Positions 4,491 through 30,137 are shown, counted from the first letter of the stretch. The stretch: 64,000 bases of DNA from a virus (IMGVR_UViG_3300046615_000768:15817-79816); one strand, 5' to 3'. Notes: a model not told the origin generated them from the letters alone. Numbers and translations: made by a program.

Positions 4491-4764
4491 CACCAGCAAT
4501 AAGACAGCGCACTGGTCGGATCGGAAGACGGCAGCGGTGCGTAGTGAGGCCCCTACTGTGGGATCTGTTTCTGAAACAGGGGCGATCGGCGGCGAAGACA
4601 GCACCGATGAAACGAAAGGCTGTCACGTCATGCGGCTCCGTCGGAGGGGAAGCGTGTAAAGGCAGGCGTAGGAAGGCTACGTCTGCCCACCATCAGAGGC
4701 AACGGGTTTAGCAGGCGGTAGCACAGAGCTAGAAGGCATGCAGTACCACTAACCAGGGGAACAA

Positions 4765-8826: not shown

Positions 8827-8846
8827 CCAGGCGATAAGGAGCTGTC

Positions 8847-9320
8847 ATGTGGATTTTCGTTGAAACCGCCCGCATCGAGAACAATTGGGGCCAGTGGTCC
8901 GCGCTCGTCACGTTGAGCAACAACGACACCCCGGAATCGTTCTGGATCAACTTCGCGTCCGAGCCGTCCGTGGCAGAGGCCGACGCTGCCGGCACGCAGA
9001 TGGCCGTGTCAAAGAATCTCGCGGCTGCCGAAGAAGAGTTCGAGGCAGTCGTTGGCTCGCCCTACACGGCTCTTAACCTGCAATGGCAGACGGCTGCGGA
9101 GCTGGCAGCGCGCTTTCGCGCCCGCTACCGCGACGCCACCGGGATCGACGCGGCCAAGCTGGCGTACTGGCTGATCGAACGCGTCATCGCAAACGACCTG
9201 TCCGACGCCCAGATGGAAGACGCCTTCGGGTTGACCGCCACGGAGTACAACAGCGTGGCGGCGCGCATGAGCGCGCTGCACGATAGCTGGGCTAACGTCT
9301 TGGGTGCGCAAGGCGAGTAA
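8847..9320 (+). CDS. Fibre-module protein (possible chaperone)
   Basis: AAGGAG RBS; coupled to the fibre gene. Confidence 0.55.
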   Translation: MWIFVETARIENNWGQWSALVTLSNNDTPESFWINFASEPSVAEADAAGTQMAVSKNLAAAEEEFEAVVGSPYTALNLQWQTAAELAARFRARYRDATGIDAAKLAYWLIERVIANDLSDAQMEDAFGLTATEYNSVAARMSALHDSWANVLGAQGE

Positions 9321-18544: not shown

Positions 18545-19213
18545 ATGGACGACACCCCGAAGATGAAGGCCGATTGGGAGGCCATTGAGAAGCAGTACCG
18601 CGCTGGCGTTCTGTCGCTGCGCGAGATCGCACGGCAGCATGGCGTGACCGACGCAGCCATTCGCAAGCGGGCCAAGGTCAATGCGTGGGAGCGTGACCTG
18701 ACGGCGAAGGTGCAGGAGAAGGTACGGCTAGAGCTGGTACGCACAGAGGTACGCACCCCCAACACGCGCGAGCAAGTGCGTACCGAGCGCGAGATCGTCG
18801 ACAGCGCCGCGGCCACCGTCGTCCAGGTGGTGCGCGAACACCGCAAGGACATCAGCAACGGTCGCACGCTTGTATCGCTGCTGGCGTCCCAGCTGCTCGA
18901 CGTGGCTGGCCACCGCGATATCTTCATGGACGCGATCGAGGCCGAAACCGCTGACGACGAATCGGGCGAGCGCCGCGCCAAGATGCTCAAGGCCGTCTCG
19001 CTGCCGGTGCATGCGGCGACGATCCGGGACCTGTCGAACGCGATGAAGAACCTCGTGACGCTGGAGCGGCAGGCGTTCAGCGTCGGCGACGCACCGATCG
19101 AGAAGCCGGAGGAGCCGGCGAGCGCGACCCAGGTCGACGCCGGCTTCGCCGACCTGCGCGCCGCGTTCAACAAGCGCCTGAAAAAAGACGACGATGCCCC
19201 TGCAGCTTCCTGA
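18545..19213 (+). CDS. terS: Terminase small subunit
   Basis: DWEAIE..YRAG..SLREIA..HGVT..AIRKRAK...W.RDL N-terminal HTH; directly precedes terL. Confidence 0.8.
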   Translation: MDDTPKMKADWEAIEKQYRAGVLSLREIARQHGVTDAAIRKRAKVNAWERDLTAKVQEKVRLELVRTEVRTPNTREQVRTEREIVDSAAATVVQVVREHRKDISNGRTLVSLLASQLLDVAGHRDIFMDAIEAETADDESGERRAKMLKAVSLPVHAATIRDLSNAMKNLVTLERQAFSVGDAPIEKPEEPASATQVDAGFADLRAAFNKRLKKDDDAPAAS

Positions 19214-20819
19214 GGAATTCCGCCAGTCCCTGCAAGCGGCACCGTTCGAGGCGGTCGCCGACCTGTGGGAGATCATCGAGCGCACCTATGGCATCGAGGG
19301 CAAGGCCTGGCTCGGGCGCAACGACCGCTATTACCTGTTGATCCGATTGCTGCACCGGCTTGATGCCGTGCACCCGTGGCTGTACGCCCGGTGCCGAGAA
19401 GTGGAGGAGCGCCCAGACGGTCATCTTGACCTCTGGGCGCGATGTTGAGAACACTACAAAAGCACGGTCATTACCTACGCCGGCATCATCCAGGCCTTGA
19501 TCATCGACCCGGAAATCACGGTCGGGATTTTCAGCCACACGAAGCCAGTCGCACGTAAATTCCTGCTGCAGATCAAACAGGAGCTGGAGGCCAACGCGGA
19601 CCTGAAACTGGTCTACCCGGACGTGTTCTACTCGGACCCGCGCAACGAGTCGCCGAAGTGGTCCGAAGAGAAGGGGATCGTCGTCAAGCGGCGCTCAAAT
19701 CCCAAAGAAGCCTCTGTCGAGGCACACGGCCTTGTCGATGGACAGCCCACTGGCGCCCACTTCCTCCTGCGCGTGTATGACGACGTTGTCACCCGCGAGT
19801 CGGTGAGTACCCCGGAGCAGGTGGCCAAGACGACCTCCGCATGGGAGTTGAGCGATAACCTCGGCGCCCGCGGCCCCGACGGCAAGAGCCGCGCATGGCA
19901 CGTGGGCACCCGTTACTCGTTTCAGGACAGCTACCAGTCGATCATCGACCGCGGCGCGCTCATTCCGCGCCTGTACGCAGCCACCGACAACGGTATGCCG
20001 GACGGGAAGCCGATCCTGCTGACGCCCGAGGCCTGGGCCGATCGCAAGCTCAAACAGGGCCCGGCCACCATCGCCGCGCAGATGCTGCAGAACCCTGCAG
20101 CCGGCAACCAGGCGATGTTCAGGAAGGAGTGGCTCAGCTTCATCGACATCAGGCCGGCCACCCTGAACGTCTACATCATGGTCGACCCCGCCCACTCGAA
20201 GAAAAAGGGCAGCGACAACACCGCCATGGCCGTCGTCGGCATCGACTCGGGCGGGAACAAGTACCTGCTCGATGGGTTCAGGCACAAAATGGGCCTGCGC
20301 GAACGCTGGGAGGCCATGCGTGGCCTGCGCAAGGTGTGGATCGCACAGCCAGGCGTGCAAATGGTCAAGGTGGGCTATGAGCGTTACGGCCTTCAAGCCG
20401 ACCTCGAATATTTCGAGGAGCAGATGCAGCGCGAGAAGGATGCCTTCCACATCGACGAGCTGAATTGGGTCAGCGAGGGCGGGCAATCGAAAGACGATCG
20501 CGTGCAAAGGCTCCAGCCGGACTTCATGTCCAAGCGGTTCTACCTGGCCGCGGTGGTGCAGGGCGAGACGGCGAACCAGAAGCGCATCCGCGAGCAGGGC
20601 CAGTCGTTCAGGATCTTCCGGCCGGTCAACCGCAGGGACCACGAGGGCAATATCTACAGCCTGAACAAGGGCTTCCTCGAAGAATATCTGACGTACCCGT
20701 TCAGCGCGAAGAAGGACCTCATTGACGCAGTCTCCCGAGTGTTCGACTTGGAGCCGGTCGCGCCGACCATCATCGACGAACGGGTCCTCGAACCCGAGGT
20801 CTACGATGACGGCATGTAA
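19194..20819 (+). CDS. terL: Terminase large subunit interrupted by an in-frame TGA (19446-19448); recoded gene or pseudogene
   Basis: Track ORFs 19194..19448 and 19497..20819 share one frame: LDLWAR-C-*-EHYKSTVITY (Walker A), VYDDVV (Walker B), MVDPA..DNTA (RNase H nuclease), DLIDAVS. Confidence 0.85.
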
Positions 20820-27308: not shown

Positions 27309-28346
27309 ATGGCAGACAGCGCTATCCAACCGGACGTGCAGGAAGCAGCAGCAACCGTCGTAACCGAAGTACCGAAAACCCCACGCGAGCTGGCTCTTGA
27401 ACAGCTCGAACAGCGTCACCAGCAGCAGATGGCCGAATCGAACGGCTACGAGCTGCCGATGGACGACGACGATCCGGCGCCGGCGCCGCAAGCACAGCCC
27501 GAGAAGGTCGACCAGCTCGCCGCGCAGATGGCCGACCCGGTCGTGACCGAGACGCCGGACCGTGTGCGCATCAAGGTCGACGGCGTCGAAACCGACGTGC
27601 CGCTCGATGAAGTGGTGCGCCAGTACCAGAAGCACAGCAGCGCGGACCGCCGCCTGGCCGAAGCGACGCGCCTCCTGCGCGAAGCCGAAGCCACCCAGGC
27701 ACGGATCGCACAGGAAGCGCAGGAAGCACAGCTGCGCGCGCAGCAGAACCAGCAACAGCCGCAGCAGCAGGCGGCAGCATCGGAAGCAGGAACCGACGCT
27801 CCAGAGACGGAAGCGTCAGGCAAGGAATTCCTCAAGGCCCTCTTCGAGGGTGACGAGGAGAACGCGTTGGCAGCGTTGCAGAAGGTTGTGGGAGGACGGC
27901 AGCAGGCGCAAGCGCCCGCGCCCACCCTCGACATCGACCAGATCGCACAGGCCGTCACGCACCAAGTGCAGCAAAAGCTCGTCGTAGAGAGTGCATTGAC
28001 GCAGAACCAGCAGACGTACCCCGAGTTGTATAGCGATCCCGATATGGAAGCCCTCGCCCTCACCAAGATCCAGCGCCTGCGCGAGCAGACCGGCACCGAT
28101 TTTCTCAGTGCCCTGGACACCGTGAGCCGCGACATGGCAACCAAGTTCGGATGGAGCGCGCATGCAGACCAGGGCCGACAGGCTGATCCTGCACCGACCA
28201 CATCGAACCGAACGGCAAAGCTGGATGCAAAGCGACAGATCGACAACGTCTCGTCGGTCAACACAAAAACCACGAGCAGCGAAGTGCAGCCCGAAAATCC
28301 AAGCGACGTGATCGCGGCGATGAAGGCGGCACGCGCGGGCGCGTGA
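27309..28346 (+). CDS. Capsid scaffolding protein
   Basis: Acidic/Gln-rich coiled coil; IKVDGVE..VPLDEV...YQK motif; directly before the capsid gene. Confidence 0.8.
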   Translation: MADSAIQPDVQEAAATVVTEVPKTPRELALEQLEQRHQQQMAESNGYELPMDDDDPAPAPQAQPEKVDQLAAQMADPVVTETPDRVRIKVDGVETDVPLDEVVRQYQKHSSADRRLAEATRLLREAEATQARIAQEAQEAQLRAQQNQQQPQQQAAASEAGTDAPETEASGKEFLKALFEGDEENALAALQKVVGGRQQAQAPAPTLDIDQIAQAVTHQVQQKLVVESALTQNQQTYPELYSDPDMEALALTKIQRLREQTGTDFLSALDTVSRDMATKFGWSAHADQGRQADPAPTTSNRTAKLDAKRQIDNVSSVNTKTTSSEVQPENPSDVIAAMKAARAGA

Positions 28347-28375
28347 TCCATCTTTCTTACTAGGAGTACACAATC

Positions 28376-30086
28376 ATGGCAGGTCAAGTCTGGCTCACCA
28401 ACAGCCTGGGTAAATGAAAGCTGCCCCGTCGCCGAGCAATCGGTGACTGATAATTGCGTGAATTGACAGGGAACCCCGACCGCGTAAAGGCGAGGGCAAT
28501 CTGCAGCCAAGCGCCGCGCAAGCGGTGAAGGTTCAACGATCATCCCCGAGGGGGGAGTAGGGCCAAGTGGCCCGAAGCGCGCAACGTCCCAAGCGGACGA
28601 TGAAATGATCTGGTCTTGCAGGTAACTGCAAGCTGCCGATGTGGGAATCGGCGGCGCCGGCGTAACGACCCGGCGTGAACTCATCAGGGCTATATGTGGT
28701 CCCCCAACCTCTCCAAAGTGCTGCGCATGGCAGTGCAGCCCCTCACCAAGTTCCGCCAGTTCAGCGACATCAAGGATGCCGCTGTCCAGGGCAAGGGCAT
28801 GGGCGAGGCGTTCCATTAACATACTGGTGGAACTAAAACCGACTCTGATTGACTTCAACCCCCGGCAGCGGGAAAGAAGGGGCAAGCAAGCCGCAAGGCT
28901 GTGCAGCCTGAGAGACTAAGCGAGTTGGCCCCGGCAACGGGGATGCGATAGTCCGAACACGGCATATAACCTGATGAAAGCCGTGAGGTGGCAGAAATGA
29001 CCACCCGCCAGCGTCAACCACGCTGGTCATCAAGTAACAGACTGTGGAACGTTTACAGCGATGTGGCAACGCAAGGCACCACCCTCACCGAGGGCGTCGC
29101 CATGCCGACCACGAACTTCGTGATCACGCAGGGCACGATGACGGTCACGGAACTCGGCAATAGTGTTCCGTACAGCTCCAAGCTGGACGACCTGTCGGAG
29201 CAGCCGGTCAAAGAGATCATCTCGAAGGTGTTGAAAAATGACGCGAAAAAGGCGTTCGACACCGCAGCCGAGGCGCAGTTCCGCCTCACGCCGCTGCGCG
29301 TCGTGCCAACCGGCGGCACCTCCACCAGCTCGGTCACGTTGACCACCAACGGCACCGCCGCTGCGGCCAACAACGTCGCTCTGGGCAAGAACCACGTGAA
29401 GTCGATCGTCGACATCATGAAAGAACGAAACGTGCCGCCGTATCTGCAGGACGACTACATTTCGCTCGCCCACCCGACGACCTTCCGCCAGGTGAAGAAC
29501 GATCTGGAGCAGGTCCACCAGTACGTCGATCAGGGTTTCCAAATGATCCTGAACGGCGAGATCGGCCGATACGAAAGTGTCCGCTTCGTGGAGCAGACCA
29601 ACATCAGCAAGAGGGGCTTCGCATCGGGCGCCTCGAACTGGGCGTATTTTTTTGGGGCCGATACCGTGGCAGAAGGCATCGTTATTCCTGAGGAGATGCG
29701 CGGGATGATCCCAGGCGACTACGGTCGTCAGCGTGGCGTGGCATGGTACTACTTGGGTAAATAACACTGCCCCGTTCTGGCGAAAGCCAGGACTGATAAC
29801 TTCGTGAACTCAGGGGAACTCCCACCCGCACCATGCGGAGGACAATCCTGATCTGAGCCCCGCAAGGGGAAAGAGCAACGACCATCCCGGAAGCGGGAGT
29901 AGGGCCAAGCGGCCCGAAGTGCGAAGCGCCTTCACTGGCGATGATATGGTCTGATCTTGCAGGTAACTGCAAGCTGCCGAGAGGCGGCGCAGGGAGTAGC
30001 GACCCGGCGTGAACATAATGGGTTTCGGTATCGTCCACACCAACCCGCAGCAGTCGCGGATCGTGATGTGGGACTCGACGACCTAA
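28376..30086 (+). CDS. Major capsid protein (resembles N4-gp56 family), spliced: join(28376..28411,28688..28816,29045..29758,30021..30086), 314 aa
   Basis: AGGAG RBS; spliced product MAGQVWLTNSLG|GYMWSPNLSKVLRMAVQPLTKFRQF...GEAFH|WNVYSDV...GEIG.YE.VRFVE...DYGRQRGVAWYYLG|GFGIVH...WDSTT* is one continuous frame. Confidence 0.9.
28412..28687 (+). ncRNA. Group I self-splicing intron 1 (276 nt, IA2-like, no ORF)
   Basis: Exon ends in U, intron ends in G; P1 GGGU/GCCC; P7 GAUCA(28538-42)/UGAUC(28606-10); P7.1/P7.2 hairpins; P9 CUUGCAG-GUAA-CUGCAAG. Confidence 0.9.
28817..29044 (+). ncRNA. Group I self-splicing intron 2 (228 nt, no P7.1/P7.2, no ORF)
   Basis: P1 UUCCAU/GUGGAA(28827-32) with U.G at the splice site; canonical GAGAGACUA...AUAGUCC P7 (28914-18/28949-53); terminal G. 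Confidence 0.9.
29759..30020 (+). ncRNA. Group I self-splicing intron 3 (262 nt, paralogue of intron 1, no ORF)
   Basis: P1 GGGU/GCCC(29769-72); P7 GACCA(29880-84)/UGGUC(29947-51); same P7.2 and P9 as intron 1; terminal G. Confidence 0.9.
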
Positions 30087-30105
30087 CAGTCGTCGGCGTC
30101 ACCTG

Positions 30106-30137
30106 AAAGCCTGTCCCTTCGGGGGCAGGCTTTTTTT
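30106..30137 (+). terminator. Rho-independent terminator after the capsid gene (possibly bidirectional)
   Basis: AAAGCCTGTCCC-TTCG-GGGGCAGGCTTT plus T run. Confidence 0.85.

Follow-up and report, generated by a model that had tools for sequence, protein, structure and literature searches.

A phage major capsid gene probably split by three ORF-less group I introns of two families

The question raised by positions 28376-30086 of a 64,000-nucleotide (nt) stretch of viral DNA (IMGVR_UViG_3300046615_000768:15817-79816, hereafter the window) is how a phage could produce its major capsid protein from a locus at which the sole large open reading frame (ORF) is a fragment of 258 amino acids (aa) with a GTG start, located at 28988-29764. 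An earlier note on this DNA had proposed that the capsid gene is divided into four exons by three group I introns that lack ORFs of their own. Here, the joining of the exons, the homologues and the covariation of the predicted RNA helices were found to agree with this proposal and with its boundaries. Taken as a whole, a major capsid gene split by three ORF-less group I introns is the best explanation of the locus, with a probability of approximately 0.87.

Exons, joined product and identity of the gene

The features of the predicted gene are as follows, with positions counted from the first base of the window.

28362-28366, + strand: ribosome-binding site (RBS) AGGAG, 9 nt 5' of the ATG at 28376, read from the sequence
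28376-28411, + strand: exon 1, 36 nt, 12 codons (MAGQVWLTNSLG), last base U, colinear with intronless homologues
28412-28687, + strand: predicted intron 1, 276 nt, family A group I, ORF-less, from an RF00028 score of 51.2 bits and covariation
28688-28816, + strand: exon 2, 129 nt, 43 codons, last codon CAU, colinear with intronless homologues
28817-29044, + strand: predicted intron 2, 228 nt, family B, group I-type, ORF-less, from family homology and covariation
29045-29758, + strand: exon 3, 714 nt, 238 codons encoding the bulk of the capsid protein, last codon GGU
29759-30020, + strand: predicted intron 3, 262 nt, family A, paralogue of intron 1, ORF-less, from an RF00028 score of 52.9 bits and covariation
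30021-30086, + strand: exon 4, 66 nt, 21 codons and TAA, colinear with intronless homologues

When the four exons are joined, a continuous frame of 945 nt is obtained that encodes 314 aa followed by TAA. Every exon length is divisible by three, so that the intron positions are all of phase 0, after codons 12, 55 and 293 (sites 1, 2 and 3, respectively). The RBS, the joined frame and the broken 258-aa fragment had been described in the earlier note, and each was re-derived from the sequence. The colinearity with intronless homologues on which that note had staked its case was borne out, since the joined product aligned with eleven intronless proteins of 314 aa with zero gaps over 314 columns, a match that leaves no room for any additional, core-less mini-intron. 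Furthermore, the peptides that span the three junctions (NSLGGYMW, EAFHWNVY and YYLGGFGI) are conserved or nearly so among the aligned homologues. The exons are intact, with neither a frameshift nor a stop, and the protein is approximately 96-97% identical to its intronless homologues. At 276, 228 and 262 nt, the introns are too short to leave room for a homing endonuclease gene. As had been anticipated, standard gene callers miss this capsid gene, which is represented in the public protein collection by no more than a 255-aa fragment (P0001). Because the gene calls end at the introns, public sets contain truncated capsid entries of 255-280 aa for this lineage.

The identity of the product was examined principally through exon 3. 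A search with this exon returned 4932 homologues, most of the best of which are exactly 314 aa in length, and many of which are named N4-gp56 family major capsid protein by JGI and NCBI. Exon 3 matches phrog_1357 ("major head protein") with an E-value of 4.5e-17 and the NCBIfam model TIGR04387 (N4-gp56 family major capsid protein, curated cut-off 60 bits) with an E-value of 1.6e-13, exon 3 alone scoring 50.7 bits. The gene order is that of a head module, comprising the small terminase subunit (TerS), the large terminase subunit (TerL), the portal, a scaffold-like ORF and the capsid gene, followed by structural and head-closure genes. Judged from phrog_1357, TIGR04387 and this gene order, the gene is most probably that of a phage major capsid protein. 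When isolated phages were searched by tblastn, all homologues displayed less than 60% identity, those of Vibrio phages foremost, and were annotated as hypothetical.

Splice boundaries and the two intron families

The boundary features claimed in the earlier note, namely an exon U, a terminal intron G, a U.G pair of the P1 helix at the cut site and an early in-frame stop, were found for all three introns. The 5' exons end in GGU, CAU and GGU, while the introns end in CAG, CUG and AUG, and the reading frame meets a stop just past each 5' splice site (AAA TGA in intron 1, TAA in intron 2 and AAA TAA in intron 3). At site 2, a shift of +1 would leave the mRNA unchanged, the exon U.G pair and the terminal intron G being present together only at the boundary given above. 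At sites 1 and 3, a shift of -1 would keep the protein, at the cost of a changed base and of a violation of both the U and the G rules. The distribution counts reported here refer to the best 80 viral-contig homologues of the capsid gene, in 73 of which the gene is uninterrupted. In all intron-bearing alleles, the intron is preceded by a codon with T in third position (GGT, CAT and GGT), against 19%, 18% and 19% of the 73 intronless alleles at these three codon ends, where C is mostly found. This difference fits either the requirement of P1 for a U or co-conversion during homing.

The exon context of the two families is also distinct. In the spliced 945-nt coding sequence, TGGGT occurs only twice (28407-28411 and 29754-29758), each time directly preceding a family A intron, and the context common to both family A sites is YTGGGT|GGYT. 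Site 2 is a 7+1+7 palindrome, CGTTCCA-T|TGGAACG (CGTTCCAT|TGGAACG; 28810-28816 and 29045-29051), encoded by the conserved residues F-H-W-N, and presumably represents the type of target cut by a homodimeric LAGLIDADG enzyme. Owing to the palindrome, two partners are available to the 5' exon, namely the guide GUGGAAC and the first bases of the 3' exon, and an unconstrained fold chose the exon-exon pairing over the guide pairing.

Regarding introns 1 and 3, both scored above the gathering score of 50 bits of the Rfam model RF00028 (group I catalytic intron), and the U.G pair of the model falls on their predicted 5' splice sites. The P1 helix, GGGU(A)/(U)GCCC, places a U.G pair at the cut site in 7/7 homologues. 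The structure of family A was derived from a 7-sequence alignment (A2) with RNAalifold, to which P7 was added by hand, giving 69 pairs. It can be observed that 96.9% of the pair cells are paired, compared with 33-42% when the partners are slid by 1-3 columns, and that 27 of the 69 pairs display compensatory change, including 4/7 in P3 and 2/5 in P7. In 500 shuffles of the alignment, none reached the observed value on four of five measures, while 121 did so on the remaining one, further pair types. All P7 pairings proposed in the earlier note are present, being GAUCA/UGAUC in intron 1, GACCA/UGGUC in intron 3 and GACUA/UAGUC in intron 2. Moreover, family A possesses two conserved hairpins (helices 10 and 11) between P7 and P3', which is the P7.1/P7.2 position. 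In the scheme of Michel and Westhof (1990), such hairpins mark subgroup IA, the usual phage type. From this helix layout, introns 1 and 3 are tentatively classed as IA-like.

Orthologues of these introns were found at site 1 on four viral contigs (L007, L008, L010 and L011) and at site 3 on two (L020 and L112). Identity is 84% among contigs for the site-1 introns and 75-92% for the site-3 introns, and a separate comparison of intron 3 with its L112 counterpart gives 92-95%. Between site-1 and site-3 introns, identity is approximately 67%. Introns 1 and 3 are therefore old paralogues, each orthologous across phages. A separate observation concerns the P9 hairpin and the bases that follow it (CTTGCAGGTAACTGCAAGCTGCCGA), which are the same in introns 1 and 3 of the window (28627-28654 and 29968-29995) and differ in the site-1 orthologues on other contigs. 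This identity could be the trace of gene conversion between these paralogues over a short tract. A longer tract was rejected, the whole 3' third of intron 1 being 72% identical to intron 3 and to its own orthologue alike. The pattern TGAWATRRTCTGRTCTTG was also discarded as a marker of family A, as it is a motif of the group I core in general, found on 46 contigs and in no way specific to the family.

Intron 2 behaved differently in the covariance-model check that the earlier note had proposed: the check succeeded for introns 1 and 3, which passed RF00028, and failed for intron 2, which gave no RF00028 match at E-values up to 10, even when 28805-29056 was searched alone with the laxest filters. 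The Rfam matches that this lone search did return belong to unrelated families at chance level only and were set aside. Other evidence is therefore needed, and intron 2 is assigned to group I on grounds of homology within its family and of covariation. At the 5' splice site, a 9-bp P1 helix, GUUCCAUUA/UGGUGGAAC (GUUCCAU/GUGGAAC), pairs U28816 to a G, with z = -3.0. The guide covaries with the exon, since GUUCCAU/GUGGAAC in the window becomes AUUCCAU/GUGGAAU in L008, and a family B intron after codon 35 in L007 displays the guide pairing GUUCCGU/GCGGAAU. A 20-nt motif from the P9.1 hairpin of intron 2 finds family B on 29 viral contigs. The common 3' domain consists of GACUA, P3', P8, AUAGUC, P9, a GGYGGCAGAAAUGACCRCC hairpin, P9.2 and AAGUAACAG NNNG at the exon, and its helices vary by compensatory changes. 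In P7 (GACUA/UAGUC), 3/5 pairs change on both sides among 22 family B members.

Four family B members, in which P4-P6 is more canonical, do score with RF00028 (L098, 66.7 bits; L110, 65.4 bits; L090, 37.8 bits; L085, 36.9 bits), and the alignments of the scoring members place the common motifs as P7, P7' and P9. It should be noted that family B was collected with the motif of intron 2 itself, so that its members are homologues by construction; the Rfam scores and the covariation are independent of that choice. For a 6-sequence subfamily that includes intron 2, RNAalifold without an input structure produced P3 enclosing P4-P5 and P6/P6a, followed by P8, P9, P9.1 and P9.2, with compensatory change in 17 of 46 pairs. 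In this fold, GACUA/UAGUC flanks P3'-P8, the position required of P7. The layout of family B thus includes P9, P9.1 and P9.2, with no P2 and no P7.1/P7.2. On this comparative evidence, we regard intron 2 as belonging to group I, in a family beyond the reach of the Rfam model. A covariance model prepared from the four Rfam-positive family B cores was dropped, because its alignment misplaced P6 and P8 and matches through the 3' domain would have been circular, the family having been collected with a P9.1 motif of intron 2.

Other observations were made on contigs with family B introns. On IMGVR_UViG_3300021495_000006, about 300 nt separate two family B-type introns (L110:365-978, minus strand), with a further, weaker RF00028 match at L110:1609-1841. 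Family B introns are present in non-capsid genes too (L084, L095, L103 and L105). The contig L098 also carries a short match to the transfer-messenger RNA (tmRNA) family at 8844-8902 (minus strand; 55.6 bits, gathering score 47), which may be the remnant of an attachment site.

The Rfam silence of intron 2 is the one result in favor of the idea that the inserts are not introns at all, being instead assembly chimeras, miniature transposable elements or sequences passed over by translational bypassing. This idea is extremely improbable. Two of the inserts pass a curated group I model. DNA contigs of the likely source sample cover 5/6 exon-intron junctions with 0 mismatches (no contig piece among those listed spans the 3' junction of intron 2), and the same introns recur on independent viral contigs, for which reasons an assembly artefact was rejected. 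Neither terminal inverted repeats nor target duplications are present, and removal of the inserts restores the exon sequence exactly. Lengths of 228-276 nt also far exceed known ribosome hops, that of T4 gene 60 being 50 nt.

Splicing, mobility and the condition of this copy

If the three inserts are group I introns, the late transcript would carry three ribozymes, in each of which the last exon U pairs with a guide-sequence G in P1. An exogenous guanosine bound at P7 would attack the bond at the 5' splice site, and the freed 5' exon would then attack past the terminal intron G. Three such events would generate the 945-nt mRNA from which the 314-aa capsid protein is translated. This course is taken from the established chemistry of the group I family. 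By reasoning from the T4 introns, the stops located 0-1 codons into the introns would release ribosomes before the ribozyme core is unfolded. In T4, translation up to the intron aids splicing, according to the passage of PMC8541194 that cites Sandegren and Sjoberg 2007, and the early in-frame stops of the window fit translation-aided splicing of this kind.

The relatives of the capsid gene reveal how variable such introns are. Each relative carries none to two of them, and five sites are occupied in the gene overall. Introns occur at site 1 and after codon 35 in L007, at sites 1 and 2 in L008, L010 and L011, at site 2 (754 nt) and site 3 in L020, and after codon 35 only in L028 (approximately 768 nt), while L061 contains an insert of approximately 830 nt near codons 52-54. 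For each site of the window, both intron-plus and intron-minus alleles exist. The longer versions carry ORFs. The site-2 intron of L020 encodes 195 aa (L020:695-1279) with a single LAGLIDADG-like motif, LAGIIDGEG, and matches Pfam LAGLIDADG_3 with an E-value of 0.0019, below the cut-off. The ORF in the L028 intron is 33% identical to it (E-value 1e-13), and the L061 insert holds an HNH_3 ORF (E-value 6.7e-13).

From the variable presence and the endonuclease-bearing versions at the same sites, the best reading of the window introns is that they represent ordinary selfish mobile elements. They most likely arrived by endonuclease-driven homing, and perhaps also by reverse splicing into look-alike sites. 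The endonuclease ORFs would then have been lost, the introns persisting as near-neutral passengers from which efficient splicing is required for virions to form. The earlier note had suggested, in contrast, that the splicing of three introns could serve as a post-transcriptional gate on assembly, by which capsid production would be timed or throttled. It is true that the capsid protein requires all three splicing events, an argument with nothing specific beyond it, and that splicing in T4 is linked to translation and growth state, as stated where PMC8541194 cites Sandegren and Sjoberg 2007. However, most close relatives make the protein from an intron-free gene and the others carry different subsets of introns, and therefore no conserved regulatory requirement is visible. 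The versions with endonucleases mark selfish elements, and nothing resembling a riboswitch or a protein-binding element was noticed in the introns. The gate is thus unsupported, and we consider it very unlikely.

Within the reading of the introns as mobile elements, the route of spread in the gene may be considered further. Each family occupies two look-alike sites, family A both TGGGT pentamers, and family B the position after GUUCCAU and, in relatives, that after GUUCCGU. A doubtful extension of these facts is that the capsid gene family forms an intron hot spot, colonized by two unrelated intron families, in which spread inside the gene occurred by guide-directed reverse splicing and not by endonuclease homing. 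If true, this would constitute a natural, datable intragenic transposition of introns in a phage.

Turning to the record itself, the remaining features to be noted are listed below.

19194-20819, + strand: large terminase gene, with a 6-nt insertion, TGT TGA, at 19443-19448
27309-28346, + strand: upstream ORF of 345 aa, rich in Gln, Ala and Glu, in the scaffold position, with no family match
30104-30137, + strand: GC-rich hairpin followed by a T run, read from the sequence, terminator-like part of a weak Rfam match

The hairpin and T run are likely to form the intrinsic terminator of the capsid transcript. The host is probably a betaproteobacterium, as suggested by a match to the Betaproteobacteria-1 RNA (RF02932, 85.5 bits, window 4505-4628, + strand) and by the capsid homologue P0017, named by NCBI from a metagenome-assembled genome of Telluria sp.

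Several results weigh against the reading of the locus as a capsid gene spliced from three group I introns. With regard to the protein, P0002, an intronless homologue with 96% identity over exon 3, reaches 59.8 bits with TIGR04387, 0.2 under the curated cut-off. A structure model of the capsid protein from 44 close homologues attained a predicted local distance difference test score (pLDDT) of 39.8 and a predicted template modeling score (pTM) of 0.34, too poor to confirm the fold, and a profile search of PDB sequences found no solved relative (best E-value 0.28), for which reasons an HK97 fold is an assumption only. With regard to the RNA, besides the Rfam result for intron 2, introns 1 and 3 have a short P1 helix (GGGUA/UGCCC) that does not reach significance by itself, and no P10 pairing was found by eye in the introns. 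A search of sequencing runs listed no RNA run with the window sequence, which is evidence neither for nor against expression and splicing. Splicing, its efficiency and its order are all deduced from DNA. With regard to the record, it is classed as a provirus from soil of approximately 80 kb that is approximately 80% complete. Shortly before the Walker A lysine, the insertion in its terminase gene separates WAR from EHYKST by a Cys codon and an in-frame opal stop. The four relatives L114-L117 lack it, their frames of 543-556 aa being open and reading WAREHYKST. The record may therefore be defective; alternatively, the insertion could stem from an assembly error, or ribosomes could read through the stop.

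The results on the terminase, the completeness and the missing RNA run are those that would be expected if the introns had been inherited by descent in the dead gene of a decaying prophage, in which one or more of the ribozymes have lost the ability to splice and the locus yields no capsid. This possibility is unlikely. The four exons are intact and nearly identical in product to intronless homologues, and the core helices of all three introns are paired in the window copy. Near-identical introns also occur in a complete genome: the record that contains L011, 98,275 bp long and bounded by direct terminal repeats, is rated 100% complete and carries introns 1 and 2 together with an open TerL frame, so that intron-bearing capsid genes are also present in phage genomes that appear to be whole. 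The terminase lesion itself could be an assembly error or very recent. In the likely source sample, diverged relatives are represented by contigs that lack introns 1 and 3. Among the contigs obtained from four DNA runs, "joints" that skip intron 1, together with a loose end at intron 3, were considered as spliced RNA and rejected, as they are diverged DNA alleles with other synonymous codons. The preferred explanation accordingly remains a capsid gene whose three introns are predicted to be spliced.

Comparison with known systems

Four systems can be compared with the window. Three group I introns in one gene were reportedly described by Landthaler and Shub in 1999 for orf142 of the Staphylococcus phage Twort. 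The likeness lies in three small group I introns within a single phage protein gene; Twort differs in being a virulent phage of a Gram-positive host. The td, nrdB and nrdD (sunY) introns of T4, which we take to belong to subgroup IA2, resemble those of the window in several respects: hairpins in the P7.1/P7.2 position, as in family A, in-frame stops just inside the intron, and the coexistence of ORF-less and ORF-bearing versions. They differ in that they reside in nucleotide-metabolism genes, one per gene (reviewed in PMC2988022).

Small introns are numerous in the Jug jumbo gut phages, with 18.5 per genome on average at approximately 206 nt, in genomes of 360-402 kb whose hosts are Bacteroides or Phocaeicola, and metatranscriptome reads confirm about half of them (PMC12880540). 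There too, mostly ORF-less group I introns split essential late genes, terL being in 2-3 pieces, gene callers fragment the genes, and free-standing as well as intronic endonucleases accompany the introns. In contrast, the window belongs to a far smaller record from soil, with a probably betaproteobacterial host, and is known from DNA alone.

A parallel in gene and life style is the mycobacteriophage LittleE (Cluster J), which possesses an intron of approximately 820 nt with an endonuclease ORF in its major capsid gene (Pope et al. 2013, PMC3706429), the splicing of which was demonstrated by reverse transcription PCR and N-terminal sequencing. In both cases, the phage is temperate, the interruption of its major capsid gene is of group I type, with U as the last exon base and G as the last intron base, and the intron was recognized against intronless relatives; a related ORF-less intron in a tail gene of LittleE adds to the likeness. 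The differences are that LittleE has one ORF-bearing intron, whereas the introns of the window's capsid gene number three, lack ORFs, belong to two families and interrupt a member of an unrelated capsid family, and that splicing, demonstrated in the former, is predicted from sequence in the latter. A capsid-gene intron of the lactococcal phage Tuc2009 is mentioned in the passage of PMC3706429 that cites it.

The rarity that the earlier note implied for the present case, by placing phage group I introns mostly in DNA-metabolism genes, was overstated in view of the capsid introns of LittleE and Tuc2009, the three-intron gene of Twort and the approximately 18 introns per genome of the Jug phages. 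The arrangement is real and not unprecedented, capsid-gene introns having already been published (PMC3706429), and it does not change what is known of how group I introns work. What is particular to it is that a gene of 945 nt contains introns of two families, one of which is missed by Rfam, and that five sites of the gene are occupied when its relatives are included. Since one of the two families escapes the Rfam model, the intron loads of phage structural genes are probably undercounted. The five sites, the versions with and without endonuclease ORFs, and the plus and minus alleles found together in one sample provide a comparative series that can be used to study the spread of group I introns and the loss of their endonucleases. 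Few capsid-gene introns have been published, and to those of LittleE and Tuc2009 the locus now adds an example from a soil phage.

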